A DNA stretch of 57,851 nucleotides from positions 1 to 57,851 of the IMG/VR virus record IMGVR_UViG_3300044568_003733; one strand, given 5' to 3'. Below the pieces are notes generated by a model that was given only the letters and a program-made list of their open reading frames with translations, made no database searches and was not told the DNA's origin. The DNA is from a virus. Lineage: Duplodnaviria > Caudoviricetes. The translations under genes were made by a program, and so were the position numbers. Position 1 is the stretch's first letter, and every line of letters begins with the position of its first letter. This document shows, piece after piece, positions 4,340-34,042 of the stretch.

Positions 4340-5164
4340 ATGTTAAATAAAAAACAATTTTACTTTATGGCGGGACTACCAAGATCTGGTAGTACTCTAA
4401 TATCATCTATATTAAATCAAAATCCTGATATTTATTCATCAGCAAATTCACCTATGTGTGGAATGATATTTAATTTAGAACGTAGTATTTTGGCATCAGA
4501 ACAGTACTCTGCATACCCAAAACCTGCAGTAATGCCAAATACAATTATGGGGGTATTAGAAGGATACTACTCTGATACAAATAAACCTATAGTTATTGAT
4601 AAATCAAGAGAATGGTCAATGCCTGAACATTTCGGGGTATTGCAAAGAAATCTTGGATATGAACCAAAAATAATACTACCAGTAAGAGGAATAACAGATA
4701 TCCTTGCATCATTTATAAGTCTAGTTAAAAAGAATCCAAATAAAAATAATTTTATTGATTCTGAAATACAAACAAGACAGGAATTTAATTTTTACCGTCC
4801 AGCAGATGATATTAGGTGTGATAGCTTAATGAGGCCAAAAGGTATTATTGATAACTGCTTATACGGTATAGCATTTGCGATGCATCCAGATAATAGAAAG
4901 TATTTCCATTTTGTAGAATACGATGATTTAATAGAAAATCCAGAAGAAGAAATTAACAAAATTTATGATTTTTACGGTATTGAAAGATTTACCCATGACT
5001 ATTCAAATATAGCAAACAATATTAAAGAAGATGATAATGTCTATGGACTTATAGGACAACATGATGTAAGATCTTCTATATCCCGTCGGAATATAAATAA
5101 ACAAGAGTTATTGTCTGAATATGTAATAAATAAATATACTGGTCTAGAATTTTGGAGAAAATAA
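4340..5164 (+). CDS. PAPS-dependent sulfotransferase
   Basis: 5'-PSB loop GLPRSGST, then IDKS, VR..DILASF and VEYDDL..P motifs. Confidence 0.85.
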   Translation: MLNKKQFYFMAGLPRSGSTLISSILNQNPDIYSSANSPMCGMIFNLERSILASEQYSAYPKPAVMPNTIMGVLEGYYSDTNKPIVIDKSREWSMPEHFGVLQRNLGYEPKIILPVRGITDILASFISLVKKNPNKNNFIDSEIQTRQEFNFYRPADDIRCDSLMRPKGIIDNCLYGIAFAMHPDNRKYFHFVEYDDLIENPEEEINKIYDFYGIERFTHDYSNIANNIKEDDNVYGLIGQHDVRSSISRRNINKQELLSEYVINKYTGLEFWRK

Positions 5165-5835
5165 TGAAGCCACATGTTAATGTTTTAATCGCCACCCCTG
5201 GTAGAAATATGGAAGCAGAATATGTAAAAAGTTTAATACAAACTATTTCATATCTAAATCAAGTAGGTATTTCATATATGTTCTTAAATGAATATTCATC
5301 TATGGTTAGTACTGCTAGAGAAGCAACAACAATGGGAGATCAATACCTAGATCCTTTTAATAATAGTCCTGCTCGTGGACAAGTAACATATGATAAAATT
5401 TTTTGGATTGATTCTGATATTGGATGGGAAATAACAGACTTTATGAAAATATATGAGTCTGATAAAAATATTGTTTCTGGTTTATATTTTAATGAAAAAA
5501 TGGTACCAATGTTTTCTGTAGCAGTAGAAGATGCGGCAACAGAAATTGACAGAATTTTAAAAAGTAATAAGGAAGAAGAAGTTTTTGCTGCTGGATTTGG
5601 TTTTATAGCAATGAAGCAAGGCGTATTTGAAAATATGAAAAGACCATGGTTTGAGTCAGTATTTCAAAAAATGACTTCAGAAGATGAGGAAAAAGAAATA
5701 TTTATTCCATACGGAGAAGATTTTTCCTGGTGCAAAAAAGCACAGCAAGCAGGATTTAAGGTGTACTTAGATCCTACAGTAAGTTTGTCGCATTATAAAA
5801 AAGTAAAGGTAAGGTTAGATAATTATGGCAAATAA
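5152..5835 (+). CDS. GT-A fold glycosyltransferase-like protein (paralog 1)
   Basis: VLIATP, WIDSDI (DxD), IVSGLY, GFGF, RPWF, GEDFSWC. Confidence 0.75.
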   Translation: MEKIMKPHVNVLIATPGRNMEAEYVKSLIQTISYLNQVGISYMFLNEYSSMVSTAREATTMGDQYLDPFNNSPARGQVTYDKIFWIDSDIGWEITDFMKIYESDKNIVSGLYFNEKMVPMFSVAVEDAATEIDRILKSNKEEEVFAAGFGFIAMKQGVFENMKRPWFESVFQKMTSEDEEKEIFIPYGEDFSWCKKAQQAGFKVYLDPTVSLSHYKKVKVRLDNYGK

Positions 5836-6529
5836 GCCACATTTTAATGTAGTAATAGCTACTCCAGGAAACGGATTCACTCCTGGCTATATGAGAAGTA
5901 TTCTTAAAACAACGTATATATTAAATCAAGAAAACCTATCTTGGAACTTTTTAAATCAAGGTGGATCTTTAGTTGCAATGGCCCGTGAATCTACAATTGG
6001 TGGATGGGATACAAATAATATAAAGATGACAGAGCCATGTAGTGGTGAATGGACTTATGACAAAATTATTTGGATTGATTCAGATATTGAGTGGGAACCA
6101 TCAGATTTTTTTGCATTATATAATTCTGAAAAAGATATTATTTCTGGATGCTATTTAATGGAAGATCGACACGTTCCTATTTATAATCAGCCTAGAGGTG
6201 GAATGATGCCAGAACAAATGATTCTTGATAATAAGGAGCCATTTAAAGTTGCTGGGGCTGGATTTGGGTTCCTAGCCGTTAAACAAGGGGTATTTGAAAA
6301 AATGCCAAGACCTTGGTTTGGCCCAGTAGCAATACCCAATACAGATGAAAACAAAGACACAAATCCTGAGTTTATACTTATTGGTGAAGATCTTTCTTGG
6401 TGCACAAAAGCCATTAATTCTGGTTTTGAAATTTGGGCGGATCCCAAAATTAGAGTAACTCATCAAAAAACATTTAAACTTCATTGGATGGATGTTTTAC
6501 AAAAAAATTATCCACAGGAAAATAAATAA
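5825..6529 (+). CDS. GT-A fold glycosyltransferase-like protein (paralog 2)
   Basis: Same motif series as the upstream gene: IATPG, WIDSDI, GFGF, RPWF, GEDLSWC. Confidence 0.75.
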   Translation: MANKPHFNVVIATPGNGFTPGYMRSILKTTYILNQENLSWNFLNQGGSLVAMARESTIGGWDTNNIKMTEPCSGEWTYDKIIWIDSDIEWEPSDFFALYNSEKDIISGCYLMEDRHVPIYNQPRGGMMPEQMILDNKEPFKVAGAGFGFLAVKQGVFEKMPRPWFGPVAIPNTDENKDTNPEFILIGEDLSWCTKAINSGFEIWADPKIRVTHQKTFKLHWMDVLQKNYPQENK

Positions 6530-7251
6530 TGAAATTACAATTTGAAGCATTTGATAAAGAAACAGAACTTTTGTTTGAAAGTCCAAAGCCAGCAGTTCAG
6601 TCTCTTCCACAATGGTATAAAGATATGCCAACAAGAATGGATGAAGAAAAATTAGACGGTTTATCAAAAGATGGGGTTGCAGTTAGTAACTTAACATTAA
6701 AGGGATGCTCTCCTTTTCTTGACGCTTTAAGTACAGGATACATATTTGAATTACCATTTGATATGGAGTTTAGAAAAAATGATAAAGGAATGATTAATGT
6801 TCGTTGGGCAACAAATATTAATCTTATAGGACAACACGGACCAGATCAAGCACCAGGATTACCAGGACCATTTGGTGGATCCCCAAGTCTTCTTAAGTGG
6901 AGACCAGGATGGAGAGTTATTACTCCAAAAGGCTACAGTTGTTTGTTTACCCATCCTATGAATAGGCACGATCTTCCATTTAGAACATTTTCTGGTGTTG
7001 TGGATACCGATATGTATAAGCTTGGTGTTGAGTTTCCATTTCAGTTATTGGATTCTTCAATTGATAAAGATGTTTTTATTCTTGAGAAGGGAACCCCCAT
7101 TTGTCAGGTTATTCCATTTAAGAGAGAAGATTGGAAGAGCGATGTTGTAAAATTTGATGAAGAAGAAAATCGTAAAAATGGTTTTTTATTAAAATCAAAA
7201 ATAGTTCGTTCGTACAAACAACAATTTTGGCAGAAAAAAACTTATAATTAG
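6529..7251 (+). CDS. Conserved phage hypothetical protein, possibly dUTPase-like beta fold
   Basis: Translationally coupled ORF; LKGCSPFLDA, TPKGYSCLF.HP, GVVDTD, KGTP..QVIPFKR. Confidence 0.6.
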   Translation: MKLQFEAFDKETELLFESPKPAVQSLPQWYKDMPTRMDEEKLDGLSKDGVAVSNLTLKGCSPFLDALSTGYIFELPFDMEFRKNDKGMINVRWATNINLIGQHGPDQAPGLPGPFGGSPSLLKWRPGWRVITPKGYSCLFTHPMNRHDLPFRTFSGVVDTDMYKLGVEFPFQLLDSSIDKDVFILEKGTPICQVIPFKREDWKSDVVKFDEEENRKNGFLLKSKIVRSYKQQFWQKKTYN

Positions 7252-7259
7252 GAGATAGC

Positions 7260-8234
7260 ATGGATTGGTTACAGCAGGTTCCAAAAAACAATATTGGGGT
7301 GGTAGAAGAATCTTTGCCTCCAATGGGCGGTACAGAAATATTAAAATCTGGACTATATAAATATACTAATATAGCGCAGCATGAAGATGTTCACCTTTTG
7401 CTATCTAATCCATATTTTAAAAATATAAAATATACAAAAAAGAATTTGCTATGGCAACATTTGGCTCATAGCGATGAATCATTAAAATTAGGATACACAG
7501 ATCCCTCATTTATGAATGCTATAAATTCATTTGTATACATCTCTCACTGGCAACATGAAAAGTATCGTTGGATATTTAAAATCCCACTTGAAAATGCATA
7601 TGTAATCAAGAATGCAATAGAACCAATTGAATTTAAGCCAAAGACTAAAGATGGCAAGATAAAATTAATTTATACCTCTGCCCCTTTTCGTGGACTAGAT
7701 ATGCTTTTGCCAGCATTTGAAATGCTAAATAGAGAAGATGTAGAGCTTGATATTTATTCATCAGCAAAAATGTATGGAACTGGATATGAAGCTCATACAA
7801 ACGGGGTGTACGAAGAACACTTTGAAATAGCTCGCAATATGAAGAATGTTAACTATATGGGATATGCTACAAATGATGTAATTAAAAAGGCTTTACAAGA
7901 AGCCCATATTTTTGCATATCCAAGTACATTTGAAGAGACTTGTTGTTTGGCAATGGTTGAAGCTGGAGCTGCAGGATGCCGCATGGTTACAACTAACCTT
8001 GGTGCACTATATGAAACGGGATCAGAATATGCAAGACTTATGCCAATGCAAGCGGTACCAGAAACATTTATTCCAGCATATGCAAAAATACTAAATGAAG
8101 AAATTGACAATTATTGGTCTATAGAAACACAAAGTAAATTACAAAAGCAATCAGATTTTTATAATGAAAATTACTCTTGGGATTTAAGGTCTAAAGAGTG
8201 GAATAGATTGTTTGAAAAAATTAGCTCCACTTAG
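7260..8234 (+). CDS. GT-B (GT4/Glycos_transf_1-like) glycosyltransferase
   Basis: MGGTE, YTSAPFRGL, YPSTFEETCCLAMVEA (E-x7-E); AGGAG SD. Confidence 0.85.
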   Translation: MDWLQQVPKNNIGVVEESLPPMGGTEILKSGLYKYTNIAQHEDVHLLLSNPYFKNIKYTKKNLLWQHLAHSDESLKLGYTDPSFMNAINSFVYISHWQHEKYRWIFKIPLENAYVIKNAIEPIEFKPKTKDGKIKLIYTSAPFRGLDMLLPAFEMLNREDVELDIYSSAKMYGTGYEAHTNGVYEEHFEIARNMKNVNYMGYATNDVIKKALQEAHIFAYPSTFEETCCLAMVEAGAAGCRMVTTNLGALYETGSEYARLMPMQAVPETFIPAYAKILNEEIDNYWSIETQSKLQKQSDFYNENYSWDLRSKEWNRLFEKISST

Positions 8235-8877
8235 CATTATATTTTACTTGATCAGAAGCAACAATGCTATCAAAAGATTCGGTAGAGCTAGAATCAATTA
8301 AATAATCTCCCCATAGGTATTCTGAACGAGAATGTCCCAATACAGGTTCTGCCCTACGATAAAAATCATTATCACCAAACCATATTTGGAATTGCTCATC
8401 AGCACGTAGGCTAGAGGATGCTGAAACTAATAGCATAGCCCCATCAGAGATATTTATAACCTCTGATTCACCCTTAGAAAATTCATCGTATGCTTCTTTA
8501 ATCACGAATGGATCAAATTCAAAAACGCCATTTGTTAAAATAACAGCATCTGCTCCGTTTGCTACGGCATACTCAAAGCCAGTATTCCAATAACGATAAA
8601 TATTTATATCATTAAAATCTTCTAGATGGACTACGCCATCATGCTCTGTATAACCAGCAACTTTATTTACAAAAATAACTCTACTAGAAAAATTTGGTCC
8701 TGTTTGACCAGCATATGGATGAGAAACATTTTCTGTCTCTAACTCTTTTGTTTCTTGATTAAATATCTTTTTTTCGTAGGTTTCTGGGGCAATATATCCG
8801 CCAGACAATTTATTAATAAATTCAGTAAGATCTACAGTATTATTTAGCACTGGAACGACTATCCATGTATTTAACAT
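8221..8877 (-). CDS. Divergent GT2-like protein, the only confident minus-strand gene
   Basis: WIVVPV, NIYRYWNTG, IWFGDND; AAGGAG SD and a TGATATAAT promoter upstream on the minus strand. Confidence 0.6.
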   Translation of the reverse strand: MLNTWIVVPVLNNTVDLTEFINKLSGGYIAPETYEKKIFNQETKELETENVSHPYAGQTGPNFSSRVIFVNKVAGYTEHDGVVHLEDFNDINIYRYWNTGFEYAVANGADAVILTNGVFEFDPFVIKEAYDEFSKGESEVINISDGAMLLVSASSSLRADEQFQIWFGDNDFYRRAEPVLGHSRSEYLWGDYLIDSSSTESFDSIVASDQVKYNAKWS

Positions 8878-8910
8878 ATTTCTCCTTATATTATCTTATG
8901 GTATTCAAAT

Positions 8911-8919
8911 ATTATATCA
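8911..8919 (-). promoter_or_regulatory. Extended -10 promoter for 8877..8221
   Basis: Reverse complement reads TGATATAAT. Confidence 0.55.
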
Positions 8920-9014
8920 TAGAGGATTTACTAAATAAACTTCACTAGCTCCGACCTTTTTTATCTGTCGGCTGGACCTTTACAAAACCCCACCTAATAG
9001 TATATACTTGAGAT

Positions 9015-10025
9015 ATGAATCTTGTACAAAAAGCGGTTACAAATGGCGGTAAATTAGTCCCTCTAGTTATTTCTAAAGGATTAACAAGTGGAACGGGATT
9101 AATGAACCCCTCCGTATTTATAGATGATGACGGGGACATATTAGTTAATCTTCGTCATGTGAATTACACCCTATATCACTCTGAAAATAGTCAAATGTTT
9201 CCATCTATATGGGGACCCCTATCTTATTTGCATCCAGAAAAAGATCAAAATCTAAGAACAACTAATTATATATGTAGGCTGGATAAAGATCTTGTTATGA
9301 CAGATTATTCTGTTATTGATACAAGTCTTTTAGATGTCCCGCCACTCTGGGAATTTGTTGGTCTTGAAGATGCCAGACTTGTTCAATGGGACGGCATATA
9401 CTATTGTATTGGCGTAAGAAGAGATACAACAAAAAATGGCGTAGGTAGAATGGAATTATCTAAAATAGAACTAGACAAAACAAATTGGTCTGCAAAAGAA
9501 GTGTCACGTATTAGGATACCTGCACCTGGAAATGATAGTTCATATTGTGAAAAAAATTGGTATCCAATACTAGATAAACCCTATCACTTTGTTAAATGGA
9601 CTTCTCCAGCAGAAATTGTAAGAACTTATCCAGATCTTCCCGCCAGATGTGATCAAGTGTCTCTTACTGAGAATATAAAAGTTCCTGCTGATCAAAGAGG
9701 CGGAAGCCAACTAATTCGCTGGAATAGTCTATATCTATCTATAACCCATGAAGTAAACCTATTTAATAATTACCTTAGTCAAAAAGATGGTGTATACCGA
9801 CATAGACTATGTGTCTGGGATGACGATTTAAATTTAATTGGAATTTCTCCAGAACCATTTTCATTTTTAGATGCACGTATAGAATTTGCTGCAGGAGCAG
9901 CAGTATACAATAATGATTTGCTGATATCTTTTGGTCTGCAAGATAATTGTGCGTTTGTTATTAAAGTTCCTGAGATAGTAGTAGAAGACATGATAGGGGA
10001 GGCATTACTAAATGAAATCAATTGA
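9015..10025 (+). CDS. GH130/GH43-like five-bladed propeller glycosidase or phosphorylase
   Basis: MNPS, GLEDARL, EKNWYP, RGGS, IEFAAG, SFGLQD; TATACT lies 6 nt before the ATG. Confidence 0.65.
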   Translation: MNLVQKAVTNGGKLVPLVISKGLTSGTGLMNPSVFIDDDGDILVNLRHVNYTLYHSENSQMFPSIWGPLSYLHPEKDQNLRTTNYICRLDKDLVMTDYSVIDTSLLDVPPLWEFVGLEDARLVQWDGIYYCIGVRRDTTKNGVGRMELSKIELDKTNWSAKEVSRIRIPAPGNDSSYCEKNWYPILDKPYHFVKWTSPAEIVRTYPDLPARCDQVSLTENIKVPADQRGGSQLIRWNSLYLSITHEVNLFNNYLSQKDGVYRHRLCVWDDDLNLIGISPEPFSFLDARIEFAAGAAVYNNDLLISFGLQDNCAFVIKVPEIVVEDMIGEALLNEIN

Positions 10026-10584
10026 AAAATTAATTGAAGATGCATCTCATGATATGTTTAATCCAATATTAAATTTTGAGATTGCTAATAAATATGAGGA
10101 ATTAAATCAAACAGCATCTGCTGTATCTTTTTATTTAAGAGCGGCAGAATATGGATATAATACTAATCCAGAAATTGTTTATACATCATTATTAAAAATG
10201 GCACATTGTTTTAATGATCAGGCTGGAAGAGAAAATAGTGTAACTCATGCTTTGCTTCAAGCTATTCAATATATGCCTAATAGACCTGAAGGATATTTTT
10301 TGCTTTCCCGTTTTTATGAGAGAGATCAAAAGTGGCAACAATGCTACACTTTCGCCGAAATAGGGTTGTTATATTCAAAAACAATTAATCAATTGCCAGC
10401 ATCAGTAGATTATCCAGGAGAGTATGGCCTACTATTTGAAAAAGCTGTAAGTGCATGGTGGATCGGCAAAAAGGAAGAATCTTTAAATATATTTTTAGAA
10501 TTATTAAAACAAGACATGTTAGATATTTATCGTAATGCAATAATATATAATTTGAAAAGAATTGATCCAAATGCTGCTATTTGA
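10012..10584 (+). CDS. TPR-like helical repeat protein
   Basis: FEIANKY...AVSFYLRA and AIQYMPNRPEGYFLLSRFY patterns. Confidence 0.7.
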   Translation: MKSIEKLIEDASHDMFNPILNFEIANKYEELNQTASAVSFYLRAAEYGYNTNPEIVYTSLLKMAHCFNDQAGRENSVTHALLQAIQYMPNRPEGYFLLSRFYERDQKWQQCYTFAEIGLLYSKTINQLPASVDYPGEYGLLFEKAVSAWWIGKKEESLNIFLELLKQDMLDIYRNAIIYNLKRIDPNAAI

Positions 10585-11242
10585 TATTGGCGCAAATAGA
10601 GGAGATGCAGTAGTTGCAGGATTGAATAAAGGATTTGATAAGATTATTGCTTTAGAGCCCGCCCCCAAAATGTTTTATATGCTTTACAATAATTTTAAAA
10701 ACGACAAAAGAGTTATTCCACTTAAGTATGCTGTATCTGATTCTAATGACGAAAAAATTGAATTCTATGAATGTGTAGAAGATGGTCTTTCTACAATTGA
10801 AAAATCTTGGCTAACTGGAGAAGGTGCTATTTATAATGGCAAACAATTTAAAACTATTAAAGCTATTACTTGTACGATAGATTATCTTGTTGAAAAATAC
10901 GGCATTCCAGACTTAGTTAAAATAGATGTAGAGGGAGCAGAATCTCAAGTATTTGGAGGAATGACTTGCAAGCCAAAACAGTTATGTTTTGAATGGAGTC
11001 TATTTACCCTAGATCAGCATCTAGAGCAATTAAAGCGTCTTAGAGATGTTAATGGATACACAGAATTTGCGTTACAATATATTACAGATCATTTAGTAGA
11101 ACCTACAGTTTACCAATCAATGTCTATGATAGACTCTCTTCCTAAGTGGATTGAGGATACCAAAGATGAGTGGGAAAACGGCGGGTGGCTAGAATATGGG
11201 CTCAGACAAACTACAGACGTGGGAATGATTTGGGTAAAATGA
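10571..11242 (+). CDS. FkbM-family SAM-dependent methyltransferase
   Basis: FDIGANRG, ALEP, KIDVEGAE; start taken at the ATG of MLLFD. Confidence 0.85.
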   Translation: MLLFDIGANRGDAVVAGLNKGFDKIIALEPAPKMFYMLYNNFKNDKRVIPLKYAVSDSNDEKIEFYECVEDGLSTIEKSWLTGEGAIYNGKQFKTIKAITCTIDYLVEKYGIPDLVKIDVEGAESQVFGGMTCKPKQLCFEWSLFTLDQHLEQLKRLRDVNGYTEFALQYITDHLVEPTVYQSMSMIDSLPKWIEDTKDEWENGGWLEYGLRQTTDVGMIWVK

Positions 11243-11370
11243 TATATTTAAACACTAAGATTAATCTAAAGGATGGCTTAATATTTAGCCTTTTGCAAAA
11301 GGCTTATAGTACCGAGAATGATATAATATAAAAATGAGTAATACTACTGATAAAAAAGGAGATAATTAAA

Positions 11371-11754
11371 ATGGCACACTTTGCAGAAATCGACGAGAAC
11401 AATATTGTTACTCGTGTATTAGTAGTAGATAACGCAAATGAAGACAATGGGCAAGAATTTCTTGCAGAGACTTTAGGTCTAGGCGGAACTTGGATTAAAA
11501 CTTCATACAACACTTCAGGTGGCGTACACATAAATGGCGGAACACCATTAAGAAAAAATTATGCTGGAATTGGATATTCATATGATGCAGAAAGAGATGC
11601 GTTTATCCCGCCGAAACCTTATAATTCATGGTTATTAAATGACGAAACATGTCTTTGGAGCGCCCCAACACCAATGCCTGTAGAAGAAGGCAAAATTTTT
11701 AAATGGGTTGAAGAAGATTTAAACTGGCAAGAAGTAGAAATGGCACAGGAGTAA
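11371..11754 (+). CDS. Conserved phage protein of the MAHFAE type, usually accompanying glycine-rich fibre genes
   Basis: WIKTSYN, RKNYAGIGYSYD, FIPPKPY.SW; AAGGAG SD; TGATATAAT at 11319-11327. Confidence 0.7.
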   Translation: MAHFAEIDENNIVTRVLVVDNANEDNGQEFLAETLGLGGTWIKTSYNTSGGVHINGGTPLRKNYAGIGYSYDAERDAFIPPKPYNSWLLNDETCLWSAPTPMPVEEGKIFKWVEEDLNWQEVEMAQE

Positions 11755-11821
11755 TTTAAATTAATATAGGCGGATCTAGAGTAGTAATAATTAGATATCA
11801 AATATAGAAGTTAGGAATTAA

Positions 11822-12895
11822 ATGATATTTCATGTGGTAAGCCTACCTCACACTCAAACAACAGATGAGTATTCTAGTTGTGCCTTTACATCTAAAATAA
11901 TTGGTTTTTGTAAAATGATGAAGTCATTGGGACACACAATATATTTATATGCTGGTGAAGAAAATAAAGCTACATGTGATGAATTAATTACATGTATTAC
12001 TGAAGAGCAAAGAAAAGAAGCAGTAGGAGATAATCATTACACCACCGCCTCATTTGACACTAATTTACCACATTGGCAAATATTTAATAATAATGTAATT
12101 AATGAAATTAAAAAACGGGCAGGACAAAAGGACTTCCTCTGTTTTATAGGCGGAACATCTCATAAGCCAATTGCAGATGCTCTACCAGAATTTATGTCAG
12201 TAGAATTTGGTATAGGTTATGGAGCCACATTTGCTAAATATAGAGTTTGGGAATCATATGCTTGGATGCATTCAAATTATACTGGGTATAAAGATCCAAC
12301 AACAGTAGATGGATTATTTTACGATGAAGTAATTCCAGGATACTTTGATCCTACCGAATTTGCATTGCAAGAAGATAAAGAAGATTATTATTTATATCTG
12401 GGCAGACTAATAGATCGTAAAGGATATAATATAGCAGTAGAAGTTTGTAAGAAATTAAATAAAAGATTAATTATTGCTGGTCCTGGAACCCCGCCAGAAT
12501 ACGGTGAATATGTTGGAGTAATTGGTCCAGAAGAAAGAAAGAAATTAATAGGTGGGGCAATTGCATTATTTGCACCTACTCTTTATTTAGAACCATTTGG
12601 TAATATAGTTCCAGAAGCACATCTTTGCGGCACCCCAACAATAACTACAGACTGGGGAGCATTTACAGAAACAAATATTAATGGAGTAACAGGATATAGA
12701 TGTAGATCATTTCAAGAGTTTTGTGATGCTACAGAAAAGGTAAAATATTTAAATCCAGCACAAATATGGCGGAGGGCAGTGGACACTTACTCCCTTGAAG
12801 TAACCGCTCAAAAATATGATAAATACTTTAATAAATTACTTACTTTATGGGATGATGGCTGGTATAGTTATAAACCTGAAAGTGGTATAATTTAA
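11822..12895 (+). CDS. GT-B (GT4-like) glycosyltransferase
   Basis: [20 protein letters not shown] (E-x7-E), [13 protein letters not shown]. Confidence 0.85.
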
Positions 12896-12897
12896 AA

Positions 12898-14367
12898 ATG
12901 ACCACAGCTAAAGGCTTTCGCTATCCAGTATATTCAGACACTCCAGATGTCCCAAGAGATTTGGAATATTTAGCTGAAGATGTCGATACTTATTTAACAG
13001 CACATCCAGGACCAACTGGCCCATCAGGCCCATCAGGCCCATCAGGTCCATCAGGTCCATCAGGTCCATCAGGTGTTTCAGGCCCATCAGGTCCGTCAGG
13101 TCCGTCAGGTGCAACAGGTGCTACTGGTCCCACAGGACCAACTGGCGCAACTGGTCCGTCAGGTCCATCAGGAGCAACTGGAGCACAAGGAGCGGGAGTA
13201 ACAATACTTGGTAGCTATGCTACATTAGGCGCATTACAAACAGCACATCCTACAGGAGATCTTGGAGATGGATATGTTGTTGGTCCAGACTTATATGTTT
13301 GGGATGGAGATGAATGGTTAAATGTTGGTCCATTACAAGGTCCATCAGGTCCGTCAGGTCCATCAGGAGCATCAGGTCCATCAGGCCCAAGCGGCCCAAG
13401 TGGACCAAGCGGATCATCAGGGCCAACAGGGCCTGCACCAGCATTTTCAATAACATCAGATACTCCGCCATCTTCTCCAGTTACAGGACAAGCATGGTTT
13501 AATTCTACAAATGGAACACAATATACATATTATGATTCATATTGGGTAGAGGTTGGACAATCTTTAATTGGACCAACAGGTGCAACAGGACCTAGCGGAC
13601 CATCAGGACCATCAGGTGCTTCAGGTCCATCAGGACCAACTGGTGCAAATAGCACAGTATCAGGTCCATCAGGACCAAGTGGACCATCAGGCCCATCAGG
13701 CCCAAGTGGACCATCAGGCCCAAGTGGACCAAGTGGATCATCAGGATATACTCCAACTGGCTGGACAGCAATAATTACAAATCAAGCTGTAACATCTGGA
13801 ACTACGGTCACACTATCTGGACTTGGAACGTATAATAGACTTAAAATAATTTGGCATAGACAAGAAAGTAGTGGTGGCACACTTGCTTCTCCATCAGATA
13901 ATATAGATCATTTTTTAGTAGGATCTGTGAATGGTGGAGGATCAGGAAATAGTAAATTTGGATATAGCCAAGTAGAATTTATTGGATATTCATTAAGTTC
14001 ATTTTATGGAACTGGCGGAACTGGCGGAACTGGTTTGTCTGGATATGAATCAGCTGCGTATGGAGCAAATAATTCAGACCCTGGATTATTTATAGTTCCT
14101 TCAGGTCCTTCAGGAGGATCTATAGAAATTTTTGACAACTTATCTTCTACTGCAAAATCATACAATTTAATAGCAAATGGCCGACAAAGTATATCTAGCA
14201 CAGCATATCCAAAAATTAAATTTGTAACTGGAATGTGGGATAAGGCAGATCCTATTAGCTCAATTACTTTTGAATTACTTTATGGAAGCAATGGACAGTT
14301 TGGTAGAGTTATAGGCGGATCCGTTCAATTAGCTACATATTTTACAATACTAGGGAGTACACTATGA
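12898..14367 (+). CDS. Collagen-like fibre protein with three Gly-Pro-Ser-rich blocks
   Basis: G-X-Y runs at about 13009-13194, 13339-13437 and 13570-13746; LYVWDG and GQAWFNS..G..Y.YYD..WV junction motifs. Confidence 0.85.
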
Positions 14368-14606
14368 TAGATGTAACAGAAATAAATATTTCTACTGGAG
14401 AAGTTACTGAAAGAGAATATACTCAAGAAGAAATAGATAAAAGAATAGAACTTGAGTCTAATCCTCCACAAAAAATTATTGACATAAGATCTCAAGATCA
14501 ATTTTTAGAAAATGAAGAAATTATTGCATTAAAACAATCTGCTATAGATAAATTAAAGGCATTGGGTTTAACAGAAGAAGAAGCTAAAGCATTGGCAGGT
14601 ATATAA
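14364..14606 (+). CDS. Small fibre-associated protein, putative assembly chaperone
   Basis: [12 protein letters not shown]...[12 protein letters not shown]; ATGA overlap with the collagen gene. Confidence 0.55.
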
Positions 14607-14607
14607 C

Positions 14608-15156
14608 GTGCCAATAGATTTTCCAAATTCTCCAACTTTAAATGATGTTCACACAGTAGGAAGTAATTCCTGGAAATGGGATGCAACATCTTGGAATCTT
14701 GTAAGAAGTATTGGCCCATCTGGTCCTACTGGAGCAACAGGGCCTACAGGGCCAACTGGACCTAGCGGAGCAACTGGACCATCTGGAGCAACTGGTCCTA
14801 CTGGAGTAACAGGACCAAGCGGTGCGGCATCAGTATATGCTATAAATACTCAAACAGCATCTTATACTGCAGTATATTCAGATTCTTCAGCAATAGTAAG
14901 AATGAATGTTGGATCTTCAAATACATTTAGTATTCCTGTATCAACAAGCCCTACCGACTTTGAAATAGGATCATCAATAACAGTTTGGCAAATGGGTTCT
15001 GGTCAAACAACTATTCAAGCCTCAAATTCTGGAACTACAACAATACAATCAACAGGCGCATCTGCTGCCGCTCCAAAATTAAGAACTCAATATAGTTCAG
15101 CCGTAATAACTAAAGTAGCGGCAAATTTATGGTATGTGGCTGGAGATGTGGTTTGA
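14608..15156 (+). CDS. Short collagen-like virion protein
   Basis: IDFPNSPT N-terminus, G-X-Y block at ~14713-14823, C-terminal LRTQYSSA...W..AGD. Confidence 0.75.
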
Positions 15157-27178: not shown

Positions 27179-30100
27179 ATGGCTGACGAAAATATAGTCA
27201 CGAATATAGTCGCTAAAGCCGACTTTTCAAATCTTATTGCAGATCTTAATAAGGTTTCATTTTCGTTAACTAAATTACAAGATCAACTAGTAGCTTCCAA
27301 TAAAATGTTGGCAGCTCAAGTTGGTGTAATGAATAGGTCATTTGCCGACACCCTAAGAAGCACTGGTCAGTTTTCCACCCACTTTGTCAGCCTTTCATCT
27401 GATGTAGAAAAATTTGGTTCTCAATTAGACAGAGGCCAGATGAGACTTGGAAAATTTTTTCAAGTTTATCGTCAACACGCAACCTCTACTGGCGGATTAG
27501 TAAGAGATTTAGCAAAACAACAGGTACAATTACAAAACGCAATTATGCAACCCTTGGGCAAAAACGCTCAAGGGTTAATGCAATATAATGTTCATATCCC
27601 AAGAGGTTTAGATTTAGTAAAAAATAAATCTTTAATAGCAAGACAAGAACTACAAATTATGAACAAGGTAGTTCAAGAAGGCGCTAACTCATTAATTAAC
27701 TGGGGTAAAAATACTCAATGGGCAGGACGTCAATTAACAGTAGGATTAACCGTACCACTAGCAGCATTTGGAAAGGCATCGGCAGATGCATTTAAACAAG
27801 CAGATGAACAATTAGTTCGTTTAACAAAAGTTTATGGCGGAGTAGCAGCAGTATCAGCACAGGAACTTGGAAAAGTAAGAGCTGATGTTTCAAAAACTGC
27901 AGAAGATCTAGCAAAGTCATACGGCTCGTCATTTAAAGACACAATTGCTTTAGCTGCAGATATTGCAGCAACTGGAAAACAAGGTAATGATTTATTGGGA
28001 TCTATACGAGAAACAACACGTTTAGCCGTCCTTGGTGAAGTTGATAGACAAGATGCAATGAAGGCTACTTTAGCAATTCAAACAGCATTTAAACAAAATA
28101 CAGAAGAATTAGCAGAATCAATTAACTTTTTAAACGCAGTTGAAAACCAAACATCGACCACCCTTAATGACTTGGTAGAAGCAATTCCAAAAGCTGGACC
28201 AATTATTAAAGGACTTGGTGGAAGCATACAAGACTTAGCATTATATTTAACAGCAATGCGAGAAGGCGGAATCAATGCCTCTGAAGGAGCTAACGCTTTA
28301 AAGTCAGGTCTTGCCTCTCTTATTAATCCAACTAAAGTTGCAAAAGATTTATTTAATGGGTTTGGAATATCCTTAACAGATATTGTTCAAAAAAATGCTG
28401 GAAATACAACTGCAACAATATTGGAATTACAAGCAGCATTAGAAACATTAAACCCGCTTCAAAAGCAACAGGCACTAGAACAATTATTTGGTAAATTCCA
28501 GTTTGCTCGTATGAATGCTTTGTTTGAGAATTTAGGAAAACAAGGAAGCCAGACTTTGCAAGTATTAGATTTAATGAAGGCTAGCTCCCAAGAATTAGAG
28601 GCATTGGCTACTCGAGAATTAGGACAAGTAACAGAATCAGCATCTGGTAAATATCGTAGAGCGGTAGAAGGATTAAAGGCAGATTTAGCTGGAATTGGAG
28701 AGCAGTTCTTAAAGATCAATACAAGTCTTATTAATTTTGTTGATGGAATAATTAAGTTTGTTCAAAAATTACCAGATCCAATTAAACAAGCATTAGGATT
28801 TATGGGAATGTTAACGGCGGCGGCTGGACCATTAATCATGTTAACTGGTGTACTCGGAAACTTCTTTGGCTATATTATTAAAGGTGCTTATCATTTTAAA
28901 GCATTATTTAAGGGTGGAGAAGGATGGAGGCTATTAACTCCAGAAATTTTAGCAGCACAAAAAGCTGGTAATTTAGTAGAACAAACATTTTATAGTGATG
29001 CTAAAGCAGCAGCGGTATTAAAACAAGCAATTGCTGGACTAACTGCAGAGTTTACAATATTACAACAAAAAGCATCATCTGCTGCAATGTCAGTTAATCC
29101 CGCCATATCAACAACTGCTGGTAATGTTATAGTTGCAGGCCCAAGAGTTGTAAATCCTAACCACCCACTTGTAGGTAAAATAGACACAAGAGCGGCTGCA
29201 CATCATAATCCAAGAGGATTGATGAATCAAGCACAAAGAGATGCCCAAACAATTCACTCTGTTACTCCTGGATCAATTGATGTAAATCAAAAAATAGGAA
29301 CTGTTCCTCAAATATTTATGGCAGGAGATATGCCAAAAATTGAAGGATTAACATCTTCAAGAGGTGCTTCTACGGGAATAGTGGCTGGAGAGGCAGCAAA
29401 GTGGCATGCGCTTATGGGATCCCTATCTATGTTAAGTAAAAGAGAAGTTGCTACATTAAAGAAAGAAATTGCAAGAACTGGAACCTTTAGCGAAGATATA
29501 AGTAACACTTTTAGTCAATTGTTAGTGCCAATGACAGATATAACTACAAATGCTGCTAATAGATCTGCTCAAATAGTTGCTCAATTACAATCTGGAAAAA
29601 TTACAATGGAAGCAGCTCGTGCAAAAATTATTGCATTAAATACAGAAATAGAAGCAATGATGGCTACAGCAACAACTCAAGTTGCAACATCGCTAGGTCG
29701 GACTGCAAATTTAACTCAAGTCCCCCTCACTTCACAAGCCATTGTAAGTAATACTGGAAAAGCAAATTTAAAAGAAATATTTAGACCTGGCAGAAAGGGC
29801 AAGACAATAGTTGATGCTATTGCTAGGGCCCTTGGAGTAAGAACATATGGCGCTGGATATTCAACAGAAACAACAATGCCAAAGAAATTTGCAACAGGCG
29901 GAATGGTTGTTCCTGGACCAAGATCAGATACAACAGATACTCAATTTATGAATTTAATAGAAGGAGATGTCGTATTAAATAGAAAGGCATCAGATGCCTT
30001 AATGGGATATAACAAAGGCGGCAGAGTAGTACCAGCAATGGTAACTCCTGGAGAAATTATAGTTAATAACCCAACACCATCAGAAGCTGAAGCACTATTA

Positions 30101-33100
30101 GCATATAATAATCAATTTGCAGCTGGAGGTATGGTAAGAAATTCAAAAAATAATTATGGTTTAGTAGGTCTTGGAAGAATTGGAAGGCCTCGTGGAATAA
30201 GTAGATCTTCAGGATATGATACTCCAAGAATAAGATCTAGGGACGTCAGATCTTCTGTAATAATTGGTAAAACAGAAATTCCTACAAGAGGAGCAAATAC
30301 AGCTGCAGGATTAGAAACTAGTATATTGAATTCTAATAATCCACAAATGGCAGCACAAGTTGCATCACAATATGCTTCTACTATTACAAGGGCAACACAT
30401 AATAGGGCTGGAACAATTCAGCAAAAAGATTTATCACCAGACTCTGAATTAGGAAAACTTTGGCAAAAAGCTAAACTTGGATCACTATATTCTTCAAGCG
30501 CAGTAACACACGCAACTCATGCAACAAGAGCAAGGATTGCTAGGGATGGAAGTAGATTTGTTAGTAGATATACTTATCAATATGATTCTTATGCAAATCA
30601 AAGATTAAAAACAGGGATACCAGTAAAAGATTTTATTTTATTAAATTCTAAACATAAAGGAAAATATAATGATCTTTTTGCAAGAACTGGGGTACCAAAA
30701 AAAGAATGGGCTAATTTAGAAAATAAAATAGACAAAGATTTGTTTTTAAAATATGGCAAAAACAACTCAATTATTAGTGATGATTTACCAGGTACCCTAA
30801 CACTAGAAGATAGTTTCTCACCAGTAGTTGATGGTGCTATACTAGATTATTTTGGAAAAGATCAAGTTTCTAGACAAAGGGCAAAAGGCATTATTAAAGA
30901 CCTTAAAGTCACCGACGTACTAAGAAGTAAAAAAACAACTGCTCAAGCTTTAAATTTAGGTGGAATGGTTGGAAAAGCTTTAGCTCCAAAATTTAAATCA
31001 CAATTAAATAAAAAATTAGGTATTACATGGGGACAAGGATTAGCTGGAGACGGGCTTACAAACAATCCCCCAACTTCAGGATATGGAAACCTTGCTCTTC
31101 AAATTGGAATGGGTAAAAAATTATTTGGTGGATCTGGTTTAACTCCTAGAGCACAAAACTTAATGTACGATGCTTTAGCAAGCGAACTTGAACAAACAAC
31201 TCCTGATACTTACCTAAAAGTTCAAGGTGTTAGAGGACCAAAATTAGCAAGAGCAATGGCCCCAGGCCAAACAAACGGAATGCTATTTGGTGCCGCTTCT
31301 ACCGTAGCAAGGCATCGTGGAATTAGTAAAAAAGATAGAGAAATACTTGCATTATGGTCTTCTGATCCATTTAAAAACAATTATCCAAAAGGATTGCTTA
31401 GTAAAATAACTGGAAAAATGTTTGGATATAATCGTGGCGGAATGGTTTCAATGCCACCACAAATTCCAATTCCAGCACAAAATGGACAAAAATATAACAG
31501 AGGTGGAATGGTTGGGCCAATTGGTCAAATGATTGGTGGAACTGCTGGGTGGATGGGCGGACAAGCATTAGGAACAGCAGTAGGTGGAGATATTGGTGGA
31601 ATGATTGGCGGAATAACTGGATCATTTGCAATTCCAGCATTACTATCAGGTTCTGGTAGAGCCGCAGACGATGCTACTCCAAAAGTTGGAAGATTTAAAT
31701 CTGCAATATCAGCAGTTATAGGACTTCCTGGTCCAGTAAAATTATTAGGCGGACTACTTGCAGTTGGAGCTGCAATGAAAACAATTAATGACAAAATTAA
31801 AGAACACAGAGAGACTGTAAATCTTGGATTTGGGCCAACAGAAGATGCAGCACAAAGACTAGGCATCAAATATAATTCTTTAACAGAACAATTAAAAACA
31901 TTTTCAGAGCAAACTAAATTAAGTAAGGCAAATATTGAAGAGTACTATGCCGCAACACAAAGCTCTGGTGTCCCTGGTTTAAATTTAACTATTAAGCAAT
32001 TAAAAGAATTAAAAGAAACAATTGCAAAAGATTTCCCAGACTACGTAAAGATGTTTGATGCTGCTAAACCAGATCAAGTTATTGCTAAAGCTCAACAACT
32101 AAAAGCCCAATTAATATCTGGGGGTATGGGAGCCGAAGAAGCCACTAAAAAGATTTATGCAATGATTACCGTATCTAACAAAGCCAATCAATCTATTCAA
32201 GCAATAGCAAACGAGGGATTTGTAGCAATAAAAGATAAGGCAACTGCTGCTAGCCAATCTGTAAAAACATTCAATGACTTATTAAAACAGGGTAATACAG
32301 ATCAACTCACAGCATCATTTGACACAGTAGTAAATGCTCTTCAGTCTGCAGAAAAAGCATTAATAGGAACTAAAAATGCTCAAAATAAATTAATTACTGA
32401 ATCTGAAGCATTTAATACTATATTAGAGTCTATTAAAGATAAACAACTTGGCGGAGTTCAATTAACTGAACAAGGCGTAGAAGCTCTTTCAAAACAAAAT
32501 GGAATCTTAGCATTAATACTAAATAACACTGATACTGTTGCAGGAGCATATTCAAAAATTAAACTATATCTAAGTGGTATAGATACTGATCTTAAATCAA
32601 TGAATTCTGAAATGGCTGAATTAGTTGCTAAAACAATACAATTGCAGACTCAACAATTAACTGGAGTTGGTGGAGCATATCAAAATATTTCAGATGAAAT
32701 TGCAAAATACACAAGTGCAGCTTCTTCATCTAAAATTATTGATTCACAAAAGAAAGTACAAGAAAATTTAGATAGCCAAATTAAAAAACATCAAAAAATT
32801 ATTGATCAAATTAAAGAAGAGGCAGACGCAAGAGTAAAAGCTCTAGATAGACAAAATCAATCAGAAAACTTTAATGTACAGATAAAGAAATTACAACTTC
32901 AATATCAAAATGCTTTAGCTTCTGGAGACATGTCTACTGCTGCACAAATTCAACTGGACATACAATCACTATCTGGTACTCGACAGAAAGATCTTGCAAT
33001 AAATGCAATTAGAGATAAAGAAGCAGCTGATGTAAAAGCACAAGAAAGTATTATAGAAAGTCTTAGATTAAAGGGCGAACAGTCTCAAAAAATAGTTGAT

Positions 33101-34042
33101 GCTGCTAATAAAAAGGCAGACGATGCAATGAAAAAGGCTTCAGAATTACAATCTTTATTATCAGAAATTGTTGCAGCTACAATAGATGCCAATAATGGAT
33201 TAACAGATTTAGAAAGAAAAAATGTAGCAAATTTAGATAAAAGAGCAAAAGCTTTAGGTATAGATGCCAAACTACTTCCATCTACATTTACATATGGCCA
33301 AGGAAATCCTGCAATGACTGATGTATTTGGAACTACTGGAATAGAGGGTATAGCTAAATTATCATTAGCAGATGTAATAAATGCAAATAAAGAGTTAAGA
33401 GTAAAAGACAAAGACTTATATGCTTTAATTCAAAACTCATCGCTTAATACAAGATCTGCTGTATCTCAAATAACAACAACTCCTAATCAAAGGGGTGGCA
33501 TGGTTTCTACAGTTTCAGCACAGTCTTTGGTAAGTCAAGGATATAAATTAACTCCAGGCACAGTAGTTTCTATAAATGGCACCCAGTATGTAATTTCTGG
33601 GTCTACAGATAGATCTGGACAAATTGAAGTTAAAAAGAAAGCAATGGGCGGATATATTAGAAATTATGAAATGGGATCGTTTGGTGGAGTTAGAGGCCCA
33701 GGAACTGCTACATCTGATTCAATTCCAGCCATGCTCTCAAATGGAGAATATGTATTAAGAGCCTCTGCAGTAAATGCAGTTGGCGTCCCACTACTTGATG
33801 AAATTAATAAAATGGCTATGGGCGGACTTGCTGCAAGATATGATGTTTCAAAGAAAATGGCAATGCCTTCAAATACAATGGGATATAATAGAGGTGGACC
33901 AATACAAAACTATAATGTTGGCGGACTAACAATGAATTTTGCAGATGGCGGAGAAGTAAATGGTAGAATGTTATACGAACAATTTAAGGGAGCTATGGCT
34001 CTTGACCGCCTAAAAACTGGCGGAGGGGGAAGGACAATTTAA
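27179..34042 (+). CDS. Tape measure protein, 2287 aa
   Basis: TP901-like core, long Ala/Gln-rich helices, hydrophobic Gly-rich segments, C-terminal GPGT.TSDSIPAMLSNGEYV motif; follows the chaperones. Confidence 0.93.
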   Translation: MADENIVTNIVAKADFSNLIADLNKVSFSLTKLQDQLVASNKMLAAQVGVMNRSFADTLRSTGQFSTHFVSLSSDVEKFGSQLDRGQMRLGKFFQVYRQHATSTGGLVRDLAKQQVQLQNAIMQPLGKNAQGLMQYNVHIPRGLDLVKNKSLIARQELQIMNKVVQEGANSLINWGKNTQWAGRQLTVGLTVPLAAFGKASADAFKQADEQLVRLTKVYGGVAAVSAQELGKVRADVSKTAEDLAKSYGSSFKDTIALAADIAATGKQGNDLLGSIRETTRLAVLGEVDRQDAMKATLAIQTAFKQNTEELAESINFLNAVENQTSTTLNDLVEAIPKAGPIIKGLGGSIQDLALYLTAMREGGINASEGANALKSGLASLINPTKVAKDLFNGFGISLTDIVQKNAGNTTATILELQAALETLNPLQKQQALEQLFGKFQFARMNALFENLGKQGSQTLQVLDLMKASSQELEALATRELGQVTESASGKYRRAVEGLKADLAGIGEQFLKINTSLINFVDGIIKFVQKLPDPIKQALGFMGMLTAAAGPLIMLTGVLGNFFGYIIKGAYHFKALFKGGEGWRLLTPEILAAQKAGNLVEQTFYSDAKAAAVLKQAIAGLTAEFTILQQKASSAAMSVNPAISTTAGNVIVAGPRVVNPNHPLVGKIDTRAAAHHNPRGLMNQAQRDAQTIHSVTPGSIDVNQKIGTVPQIFMAGDMPKIEGLTSSRGASTGIVAGEAAKWHALMGSLSMLSKREVATLKKEIARTGTFSEDISNTFSQLLVPMTDITTNAANRSAQIVAQLQSGKITMEAARAKIIALNTEIEAMMATATTQVATSLGRTANLTQVPLTSQAIVSNTGKANLKEIFRPGRKGKTIVDAIARALGVRTYGAGYSTETTMPKKFATGGMVVPGPRSDTTDTQFMNLIEGDVVLNRKASDALMGYNKGGRVVPAMVTPGEIIVNNPTPSEAEALLAYNNQFAAGGMVRNSKNNYGLVGLGRIGRPRGISRSSGYDTPRIRSRDVRSSVIIGKTEIPTRGANTAAGLETSILNSNNPQMAAQVASQYASTITRATHNRAGTIQQKDLSPDSELGKLWQKAKLGSLYSSSAVTHATHATRARIARDGSRFVSRYTYQYDSYANQRLKTGIPVKDFILLNSKHKGKYNDLFARTGVPKKEWANLENKIDKDLFLKYGKNNSIISDDLPGTLTLEDSFSPVVDGAILDYFGKDQVSRQRAKGIIKDLKVTDVLRSKKTTAQALNLGGMVGKALAPKFKSQLNKKLGITWGQGLAGDGLTNNPPTSGYGNLALQIGMGKKLFGGSGLTPRAQNLMYDALASELEQTTPDTYLKVQGVRGPKLARAMAPGQTNGMLFGAASTVARHRGISKKDREILALWSSDPFKNNYPKGLLSKITGKMFGYNRGGMVSMPPQIPIPAQNGQKYNRGGMVGPIGQMIGGTAGWMGGQALGTAVGGDIGGMIGGITGSFAIPALLSGSGRAADDATPKVGRFKSAISAVIGLPGPVKLLGGLLAVGAAMKTINDKIKEHRETVNLGFGPTEDAAQRLGIKYNSLTEQLKTFSEQTKLSKANIEEYYAATQSSGVPGLNLTIKQLKELKETIAKDFPDYVKMFDAAKPDQVIAKAQQLKAQLISGGMGAEEATKKIYAMITVSNKANQSIQAIANEGFVAIKDKATAASQSVKTFNDLLKQGNTDQLTASFDTVVNALQSAEKALIGTKNAQNKLITESEAFNTILESIKDKQLGGVQLTEQGVEALSKQNGILALILNNTDTVAGAYSKIKLYLSGIDTDLKSMNSEMAELVAKTIQLQTQQLTGVGGAYQNISDEIAKYTSAASSSKIIDSQKKVQENLDSQIKKHQKIIDQIKEEADARVKALDRQNQSENFNVQIKKLQLQYQNALASGDMSTAAQIQLDIQSLSGTRQKDLAINAIRDKEAADVKAQESIIESLRLKGEQSQKIVDAANKKADDAMKKASELQSLLSEIVAATIDANNGLTDLERKNVANLDKRAKALGIDAKLLPSTFTYGQGNPAMTDVFGTTGIEGIAKLSLADVINANKELRVKDKDLYALIQNSSLNTRSAVSQITTTPNQRGGMVSTVSAQSLVSQGYKLTPGTVVSINGTQYVISGSTDRSGQIEVKKKAMGGYIRNYEMGSFGGVRGPGTATSDSIPAMLSNGEYVLRASAVNAVGVPLLDEINKMAMGGLAARYDVSKKMAMPSNTMGYNRGGPIQNYNVGGLTMNFADGGEVNGRMLYEQFKGAMALDRLKTGGGGRTI

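Follow-up and report, generated by a model that had tools for sequence, protein, structure and literature searches.

Phage tape measure proteins (TMPs) are usually viewed as rulers and channel formers that sometimes carry one lytic motif. Cleavage of TMPs (T5, lambda), lytic motifs inside TMPs, and TMP-derived effectors of injection systems are already known. Here, we describe a TMP gene in the IMG/VR record IMGVR_UViG_3300044568_003733, a 57.9-kb viral record of an uncultured phage with an estimated completeness of about one half, all 57,851 nucleotides of which are called the window below. The gene, a single open reading frame (ORF) at 27179-34042 on the plus strand, encodes a protein of 2287 residues and 244 kDa that holds about twelve short GG motifs and a pair of hook modules, together with two large internal domains, designated cassette A (residues 1023-1248; 30245-30922, plus strand) and cassette B (residues 1265-1416; 30971-31426, plus strand). 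In the family to which it belongs, the TMP is a platform with defined junctions, and dozens of unannotated folded domains are exchanged there.

In phage T5, the TMP pb2 is cut during tail morphogenesis, and mass spectrometry maps the cut after R1127; the C-terminal piece, pb2C, of 92 residues, is kept in the tail tip and later expelled toward the periplasm, according to the available portions of the T5 reports. In pb2, as in the window TMP, a GG motif and a hook-like module come after a hydrophobic stretch. However, pb2 has a single site and one 92-residue C-terminal piece, against about twelve motifs in the window TMP, with its hook modules and large internal domains present in twos. In addition, the T5 cut is mapped, whereas cleavage of the window TMP is proposed by analogy only, and T5 aligns with a variant of the module. 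Lambda gpH shares a motif-hook-motif module at residues 732-785 but is without internal cassettes, and both the site and the catalyst of its cleavage are stated as unknown in the accessible part of the 2025 Ur-lambda paper. The TMPs of Pseudomonas phage JBD30 (gp46; 8rk3) and mycobacteriophage Douge (gp16; 8zdo) share the module as well, that of Douge with two copies, as in the window TMP; unlike the latter, they are not described as having swappable cassettes in the available sections of the structure reports. The same sections have residues 1022-1066 of the JBD30 protein as a predicted 'hook', for which its authors speculate about cleavage, and in both structures only the last 33-42 residues are resolved, forming a trimer in the hub.

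The TMPs of mycobacteriophage TM4, TP901-1, and others are said to contain embedded cell-wall hydrolase motifs. There, too, functional domains lie inside the TMP and are delivered at infection, and relatives of the window TMP hold CHAP and LysM or OmpA-like domains; in contrast, the window cassettes are located mid-protein and carry no lytic signature. To our knowledge, a bracketing motif and exchange on the scale found here are absent from descriptions of hydrolase-bearing TMPs. A remark in the lambda literature, of which excerpts are available, also has several TMPs containing a peptidoglycan hydrolase.

Sle1-type TMP-related effectors of actinobacterial contractile injection systems have functional domains that vary by species and are exchangeable experimentally, as stated in the available part of the source (PMC13277306). 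By description only, they resemble the window protein as a TMP-derived platform with exchangeable functional domains; Sle1, however, is the cargo of a contractile injection system, whereas the window protein is the tape measure of an infectious siphophage. A link of the window to contractile injection systems was rejected, since the neighboring genes encode phage portal, capsid protease, capsid, DNA polymerase, helicase, and primase, and a scan of 43 ORFs gave no match to a PHROG sheath family. Polyvalent proteins of phages and conjugative elements, reportedly described by Iyer et al. 2017, are giant virion-delivered proteins in which many independent effector domains are strung together and possibly proteolysed; they are typically MuF- or head-associated, and their domains belong to catalogued families. 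The window TMP shares with them the idea of one giant virion-delivered multi-domain protein; membership was rejected, as no polyvalent-associated, MuF, or peptidase Pfam domain occurs in the window TMP (P0001) or in 24 representative homologues. In the full-text literature, whose coverage is incomplete and hence gives no proof of absence, we found no TMP family that combines a conserved bracketing motif and a duplicated hook with dozens of unannotated domains open to exchange, nor any link between such a motif and the T5 cut.

Exchange of segments between GG motifs

A preliminary description of the window had read the TMP as a polyprotein divided by GG motifs that act as cleavage or swap points, and had listed eleven of them. 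All eleven are found in one frame of the single ORF, starting at 29888, 30008, 30116, 30950, 31427, 31493, 33641, 33812, 33884, 33911, and 33938 on the plus strand, and a twelfth that had been missed, NQRGGMV, is located at residues 2103-2109. The strict pattern [FYLM][AN]xGG[^G][VI] is found 8 times, whereas 5000 shuffled versions of the protein contain it 0.066 times on average and at most twice; a looser pattern is observed 10 times, with 1.6 expected and a maximum of 7 in shuffles. The first residue of the motif is mostly F, Y, L, or M, and a lysine precedes only four of the motifs (K903, K1438, K2156, and K2211). Frequently, the motifs stand in 9-residue tandems.

Homologues were collected by a region-directed search, which returned 123 proteins with an expectation value (E) of <=0.001 among 7997 scored candidates; the best 120 of these 123 were used. 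Nearly all of them are TMPs, about 2000-2650 residues long. A scan of viral contigs gave at least 600 matches, from which 80 loci were kept. BLASTP alignments with the 120 homologues cover residues 1-900 of the window TMP in 108-119 cases (residues 600-900 in 118-119) and residues 1451-2000 in 116-120 (residues 1451-1575 in 119-120), with coverage by about 98-108 beyond residue 2000. Between these regions, coverage drops to 37-40 of 120 over residues 1026-1225, in cassette A, and to 63-68 of 120 over residues 1251-1400, mostly in cassette B; overall, segment A is common to about 38 homologues and segment B to about 67.

The edges of these gaps tend to lie at the motifs. In the 86 homologues that align in two colinear pieces, 71% of the 172 break ends lie <=15 residues from a motif, compared with 30% for positions drawn at random, where the highest value in 2000 draws was 41%, and 21 of the 86 right-hand ends concentrate at residues 1254-1259. 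Individual relatives display the same arrangement. P0019 is 85% identical to the window TMP up to residue 988, continues with an unrelated segment of 256 residues, and is 98% identical again from residue 1418 on, over 870 residues; P0009 is 90% identical through ...FAxGGxVxxSKNNYG, and its match resumes at YNLGGVV.

Split at the motifs, the 151 distinct middle regions yield inter-motif pieces that fall into about 40 clusters, with 12 members in the cluster of the query cassette A and 65 in that of cassette B. A-type cassettes are found both with and without B; types 1, 6, 12, 5, 8, and 3, for example, each occur in several combinations. We mapped 22 cassette types onto a FastTree tree of the N-terminal scaffold, which comprised 143 of the 151 TMPs after omission of eight with an incomplete N-terminus or fewer than 1500 residues. 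The types require at least 73 changes, a rough figure, where the minimum possible is 21 and shuffling of the labels gives 96-110; the presence of B requires at least 27 changes on the same tree. The idea of swap points is thus borne out: homologues share the scaffold and not the inter-motif segments, the breaks fall at motifs, and the cassette types are scattered over the tree. In the alignment of homologous TMPs, which the preliminary description had proposed for detecting swapping, the inter-motif segments are exchanged, and we hold modular exchange at the motifs with high confidence.

Profile comparison between cassette clusters with hhalign links several pairs at 95-99.7%; the query type is linked with one other, and the links form three further groups. 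On visual inspection, a His...aromatic...N..L..G pattern recurs in many cassette types. A single deeply diverged cassette family was considered, and at least eight groups are unlinked by hhalign; we do not claim a common origin, although the types may share a fold, as the alignments are shallow.

In relatives of the window TMP, known domains are also found between the motifs. Each of the 4 relatives examined has motifs on both sides of such domains, namely OmpA-like domains (P0021 and P0120), CHAP with LysM (P0117), and LysM (L061), and in longer members of the family the C-terminal region is a chain of modules with [FY]AxGGxV as separators. Because the motifs bracket OmpA, CHAP, and LysM domains in all four relatives, the motif is, judging from these sequences, a general module boundary in the family, and some of the modules are plainly cell-wall-directed. 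Apart from OmpA, CHAP, and LysM, Pfam detected only PF10145 in the window TMP and the 24 representative homologues, and it found no match in their middle regions. One of the motif-bracketed C-terminal modules of P0120, a protein of 3498 residues, contains by eye the HExxH string LLHELGHRDHE, with no Pfam match there, and could be a built-in metalloprotease. P0117 has an extra middle cassette without a Pfam match at E<=0.01, in which we note by eye R ... S-x-S ... E-x-E, a pattern that we take to be reminiscent of ADP-ribosyltransferases.

The codons of the motif were inspected in 53 related TMP genes. The first glycine is encoded by GGC or GGT in 81% of cases and by GGA in 19% (background 53%), and the second by GGA in 80%, which fits avoidance of a Shine-Dalgarno-like GGAGG inside the gene. 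The other motif codons follow gene-wide usage. A recombination signal at the DNA level is consequently unsupported, and because codon usage shows only the GGAGG-avoidance bias, the motif is conserved as protein and not as DNA.

The hook module and the T5 cleavage site

The internal hook-like module comprises residues 904-986 (29888-30136, plus strand), is delimited by its motifs and by hhalign, and contains the GG motifs FATGGMV, YNKGGRV, and FAAGGMV. The C-terminal hook module, at residues 2103-2260 (33485-33958, plus strand), was recognized from its six GG motifs and its matches to TMPs; its sequence runs in the order KAMGGYI, GPGTATSDSIPAMLSNGEYV, MAMGGL, YNRGGPI, YNVGGL, FADGGEV. An internal copy of the C-terminal motif GP..(T/S)D....L..GE.V had been proposed beforehand. 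Within the protein, the similarity of residues 912-933 to residues 2172-2192 is weak (BLASTP E 0.11); at the level of the family, however, the copy is clear, with the internal (71) and C-terminal (47) copies matching at hhalign 98.6% and E 1e-15 over 47 columns.

The C-terminal 141 residues match TMPs in 671 isolated-phage records, 22 PHROG families, and two solved-structure chains. JBD30 gp46 (8rk3_A) matches at residues 1019-1074 (E 4e-7), the shared module reading GPGTxxSDS(I/M)..(S)N.EF, and Douge gp16 (8zdo_S; E 1.3e-11) has two copies, at residues 956-1013 and 1416-1458, inside a chain of 1699 residues. Since the Douge TMP holds two, duplicated internal hook modules are not peculiar to the window family. 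In many PHROG profiles the module is located hundreds of residues from the end, so a hook followed by further sequence is common. The lambda gpH module (FATGGFT...PAGIVHRGEFVF...YATGGYV) matches the motif-hook-motif profile at hhalign 75.5% and E 2.4e-5, whereas pairwise similarity is weak (E 0.046).

The cut site of T5 pb2, whose sequence we took from the translation of the T5 record, is NSFVPR/AEGGMMYPG, with the slash marking the cut. Cleavage thus occurs at the first residue of a GG motif, which is one of 2 loose-motif instances in 1219 residues; on a rough estimate, the probability that cut and motif coincide by chance is about 1%. T5 residues 1127-1160 align with residues 2260-2293 of the family member P0013 (KAVGGRVVPGREYRVGERGEEIF) at 41% identity (E 3e-5), and it is via this member that the family motif is homologous to the mapped cleavage site. 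In the alignment, R/AEGGMM of T5 corresponds to K/AVGGRV of P0013, and the window TMP has KKK/AMGGYI at the start of its C-terminal module. In the C-terminal part of T5 pb2 (L082:14122-14850), the string YQMGEHGTEVV, which carries a peptidase-motif annotation (IPR000834), aligns with YRVGERGEEIF of P0013, where the histidine is replaced by arginine, and may be part of a conserved hook-type module, not a metal-binding site.

In lambda gpH, FATGGFT is located at residue 733, and a T5-like cut there would leave about 120 residues. With the motif linked to the only mapped TMP cleavage site, both the position and the signal of the gpH cut become directly testable in model phages.

Cassettes A and B and their possible role

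The two segments between the motifs had been described as basic and unlike a tape-measure helix, and both properties are found. The isoelectric point (pI) is 10.1 for residues 987-1257, which contain cassette A (pI 9.7 by itself), and 10.2 for cassette B and its core, and AlphaFold2 predicts mixed alpha/beta globular cores with long helices for both. In these models, which were made from shallow alignments of 16 rows (A) and 36 rows (B), the predicted local distance difference test score (pLDDT), averaged over 10-residue blocks, is mostly 76-94 in the A core (residues 1023-1248), with a dip to 49-58 at about residues 1105-1124, and mostly 82-93 in the B core (residues 1266-1418), with a loop at 53-55 at about residues 1285-1304. 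The motif-bearing flanks have a pLDDT of <50 in both models. Cassette A is preceded by a basic linker (residues 987-1022; 30137-30244, plus strand) with a pI of 11.8 that is predicted to be disordered (pLDDT about 30); its initial SKNNYG is still common to relatives, and the identity of P0009 stops after it. Between A and B lies the linker motif LNLGGMV (residues 1258-1264; 30950-30970, plus strand), also predicted to be disordered. B is followed by two linker motifs, YNRGGMV...YNRGGMV (residues 1417-1445; 31427-31513, plus strand), where the 98% identity of P0019 starts. The label 'cargo-like domains' therefore fits the shape, compact domains with disordered linkers on either side; its functional part is without support.

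The invariant residues of cassette A in 16 aligned sequences include T-H-x-T (residues 1113-1116), N1140, K1162, Y1163, E1181, and D1185, the last two within an E..ID string. Cassette B has a conserved GMGKxLFGxxGLxxxxQNLxY stretch, with G-M-G-K..L-F-G...Q-N..Y and an aspartate invariant. Because both cassettes keep invariant polar residues, the conservation argues for a specific activity or binding site in each.

Searches for known relatives of the cassettes gave little. Pfam found no match in the cassettes of the window TMP, lytic and wall-binding domains being absent at E<=1; NCBIfam gave no cassette match, PHROGs gave marginal matches only, and sequence comparison with the PDB gave nothing meaningful for A or B. 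Foldseek, a check that had been suggested beforehand, returned no match for either cassette at E<=0.001 in the PDB and BFVD. In a wide VIA-align search, the best Z scores were 5.0 for A (root-mean-square deviation (rmsd) 3.9 Å for 87 residues) and 5.2 for B (rmsd 4.0 Å for 80 residues), under the noise level of 7-8. The ESM Atlas gave no usable match for A, and for B only unnamed viral clusters with a score of 0.83. Cassette A is rare: among 1.84 billion representative proteins, HMMER found 4 matches to it, three long TMPs and P0123. The latter, a protein of 280 residues without GG motifs, has a cassette-A-like core, THGTHLT...YIVDY..., and may be a free-standing version of cassette A; the sole match in a search for shorter cassette-A proteins has 408 residues and lies on a 2.3-kb contig. 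Intein junctions are marked by Cys/Ser/Thr ... His-Asn residues. A self-splicing insert was rejected, as Pfam gives no Hint-type match, the folds are mixed alpha/beta, and the cassette edges are without such residues.

The best explanation as a whole, to which we assign a probability of roughly 0.5, is a conserved TMP scaffold with exchangeable inserts, motifs that serve in cleavage or as joints, and delivery of the cassettes. The scaffold consists of a TP901-type core, two hydrophobic stretches presumed to insert into the membrane, a long presumed ruler, and a C-terminal hook module that ends in a tail presumed to bind the hub. The cassettes lie between the internal hook copy and the second hydrophobic stretch, on linkers that are predicted to be disordered and bear the motif, which itself would be the opening part of a widespread TMP hook module. 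The C-terminal motif KKK/AMGG (residues 2156/2157) is a candidate maturation site because T5 pb2 is cut at the start of the homologous motif, with the piece retained and then expelled; a cut there would yield a fragment of 13.7 kDa, comparable to lambda gpHC. On this analogy, we consider the chances of cleavage at the C-terminal motif to be about even. The internal motifs might be cut likewise, in which case the tail lumen would carry A and B, which would be set free in the envelope or the cytoplasm of the host before the DNA enters; by the same analogy, we regard cutting at these motifs as rather doubtful. Left uncut, they would be flexible joints that seat folded inserts in a thread-like protein. 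That the cassettes act on the host is a tentative proposal, with odds somewhat short of even, and their release as 'effectors into the host', in the words of the preliminary description, is something that we infer. If the cassettes are delivered proteins, they would constitute a large untapped set of early-acting phage factors, and the linkers would offer natural sites at which cargo could be engineered into phage tails.

A more far-reaching version takes (K/R or aromatic)-(A/N)-x-G-G-x-(V/I) as a general maturation signal of siphophage TMPs, including a lambda gpH site at or near F733-ATGG, that is used repeatedly in the window TMP. This would result in a polyprotein filling the tail lumen with exchangeable proteins, of at least about 20 unannotated kinds, that are injected before the DNA. 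Taken jointly, these propositions seem unlikely to us.

Several points weigh against cleavage and delivery, or limit the evidence for the exchange. The query used to collect homologues included the variable region, which biases the collection, and the scaffold tree was built with FastTree from mutually related sequences of a gene that recombines, which makes the 73 changes rough; the exchange numbers are rough as a whole, although there is no doubt about the direction in which they point. T5 has an arginine before the cut, where most internal motifs of the window TMP have F, Y, or L. As the first residue of the motif is usually F, Y, L, or M and few motifs have a preceding lysine, a single protease specificity would not suit all sites. 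T5 pb2C compared with the SDSIPA-type hook profile gives hhalign <1% and aligns only with the variant module of P0008 and P0013. Cleavage here is argued from analogy with one mapped site, and the tandem spacing of the motifs is as suggestive of a structural repeat as of a place of cleavage. Pfam, NCBIfam, PHROG, PDB, BFVD, VIA, and ESM Atlas all leave the cassettes without an enzymatic or toxin signature. Finally, by reasoning only, a tail lumen with a width of a few nanometers would barely accommodate three copies of a folded domain of 25 kDa.

The strongest alternative accepts the exchange and holds that the motifs are flexible or structural joints that are never cut internally. The cassettes would then stay in the ejected TMP, where they would bind envelope components of the host that DNA entry requires, or be the surface targeted by superinfection exclusion or defense proteins, with their turnover reflecting host switching and an arms race instead of the delivery of free effectors; exclusion proteins that target TMPs have reportedly been described by Cumby et al. 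The position of the cassettes between the hydrophobic stretches at residues 537-570 and 1471-1533, their very fast turnover on a conserved scaffold, and their lack of an enzyme signature are consistent with such a role. So are the distant relationships between some cassette clusters (hhalign 95-99.7%), which fit one diversifying function, and the absence from most motifs of the basic residue of the T5 cut. However, at least eight cassette groups are unlinked by profile comparison, relatives carry clear, cargo-like cell-wall enzymes and binders between the same motifs, and homology connects the motif with the site at which T5 pb2 is cut. We regard this account as possible, though not probable.

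Alternatively, the cassettes might function in the virion only, for instance by plugging the lumen, binding a chaperone, or holding the DNA end, with variation that is due to neutral drift and recombination and a motif that is simply the conserved edge of the scaffold. Their pI of about 10 would allow them to bind DNA, and N-terminal parts of the TMP touch the DNA end in several phages, according to the available portions of the literature. Confidently folding domains with invariant polar residues are nevertheless unlikely as neutral filler, and motifs are also found between A and B and, well away from the edges of the scaffold, around cell-wall domains. Moreover, the presence or absence of B on the same scaffold (at least 27 changes) argues against an essential role in assembly, which leaves this alternative improbable. 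That the long ORF is artefactual, the product of mis-assembly or of a frameshift that joined two genes, as the internal copy of a 'C-terminal' module at residues 904-986 could suggest for two fused TMP-like genes, is a negligible possibility, since more than 100 homologues of about 2000-2650 residues on independent contigs have the same continuous architecture, the ORF is without a stop or frame change, and the Douge TMP also has two module copies in one chain.

Protein layout and genomic setting

The protein has the core domain, gene position, and hydrophobic stretches of a TMP, shares its C-terminal module with TMPs of solved tails, and is a genuine siphophage TMP of the TP901 type. The TP901-type core, PhageMin_Tail (Pfam PF10145), spans residues 239-438 (27893-28492, plus strand) and scores 107.8 bits against a cut-off of 33.2 (E 8.8e-31); the NCBIfam model TIGR01760 matches with 91.6 bits against a cut-off of 28.8. 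Of the 12 PHROG families that match, 11 are TMP families, and the best stretches all lie inside residues 1-861. No close cultured relative was found, and Megablast gave no match. With tblastn, only residues 4-703 align, at 30-35% identity to TMPs of Streptomyces phages, and 80% query coverage is reached in 0 of 357 records.

Kyte-Doolittle analysis with a 19-residue window identifies hydrophobic windows at residues 537-570, 1471-1490, and 1508-1533. The first of these (28787-28888, plus strand) peaks at 1.77. The stretches at residues 537-570 and 1471-1533 flank the internal hook module and the cassettes. The second belongs to a glycine-zipper-like hydrophobic region, residues 1446-1535 (31514-31783, plus strand), which has 15 glycines in residues 1451-1500 and in which the hydrophobic windows start at 1471 and 1508-1515. 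Residues 1540-2100 (31796-33478, plus strand), which are poor in glycine and proline and rich in charge, are, by composition only, the presumed helical ruler. The C-terminal tail, residues 2261-2287 (33959-34039, plus strand), is presumably a helix seated in the baseplate hub, by analogy with the TMPs of T5, JBD30, Douge, and lambda, in which the hub is occupied by a trimer of the last 32-42 residues according to the available parts of the respective reports.

The TMP gene is part of a late operon of the standard siphophage kind, in which the portal (18306), capsid protease (19906), capsid (21296), connector proteins, and an Ig-domain tube-like protein (25699) are followed by two small ORFs (26513 and 26923), the TMP, and then minor tail proteins from 34712 on. 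Apart from this tail module and upstream of the portal, 12898-15156 contains two collagen-like genes of tail-fiber type with many PHROG tail fiber matches. The region before the structural genes, at 4340-12895, has glycosyltransferase and methyltransferase PHROG matches together with paralogous unknowns, among which phrog_1574 occurs twice.

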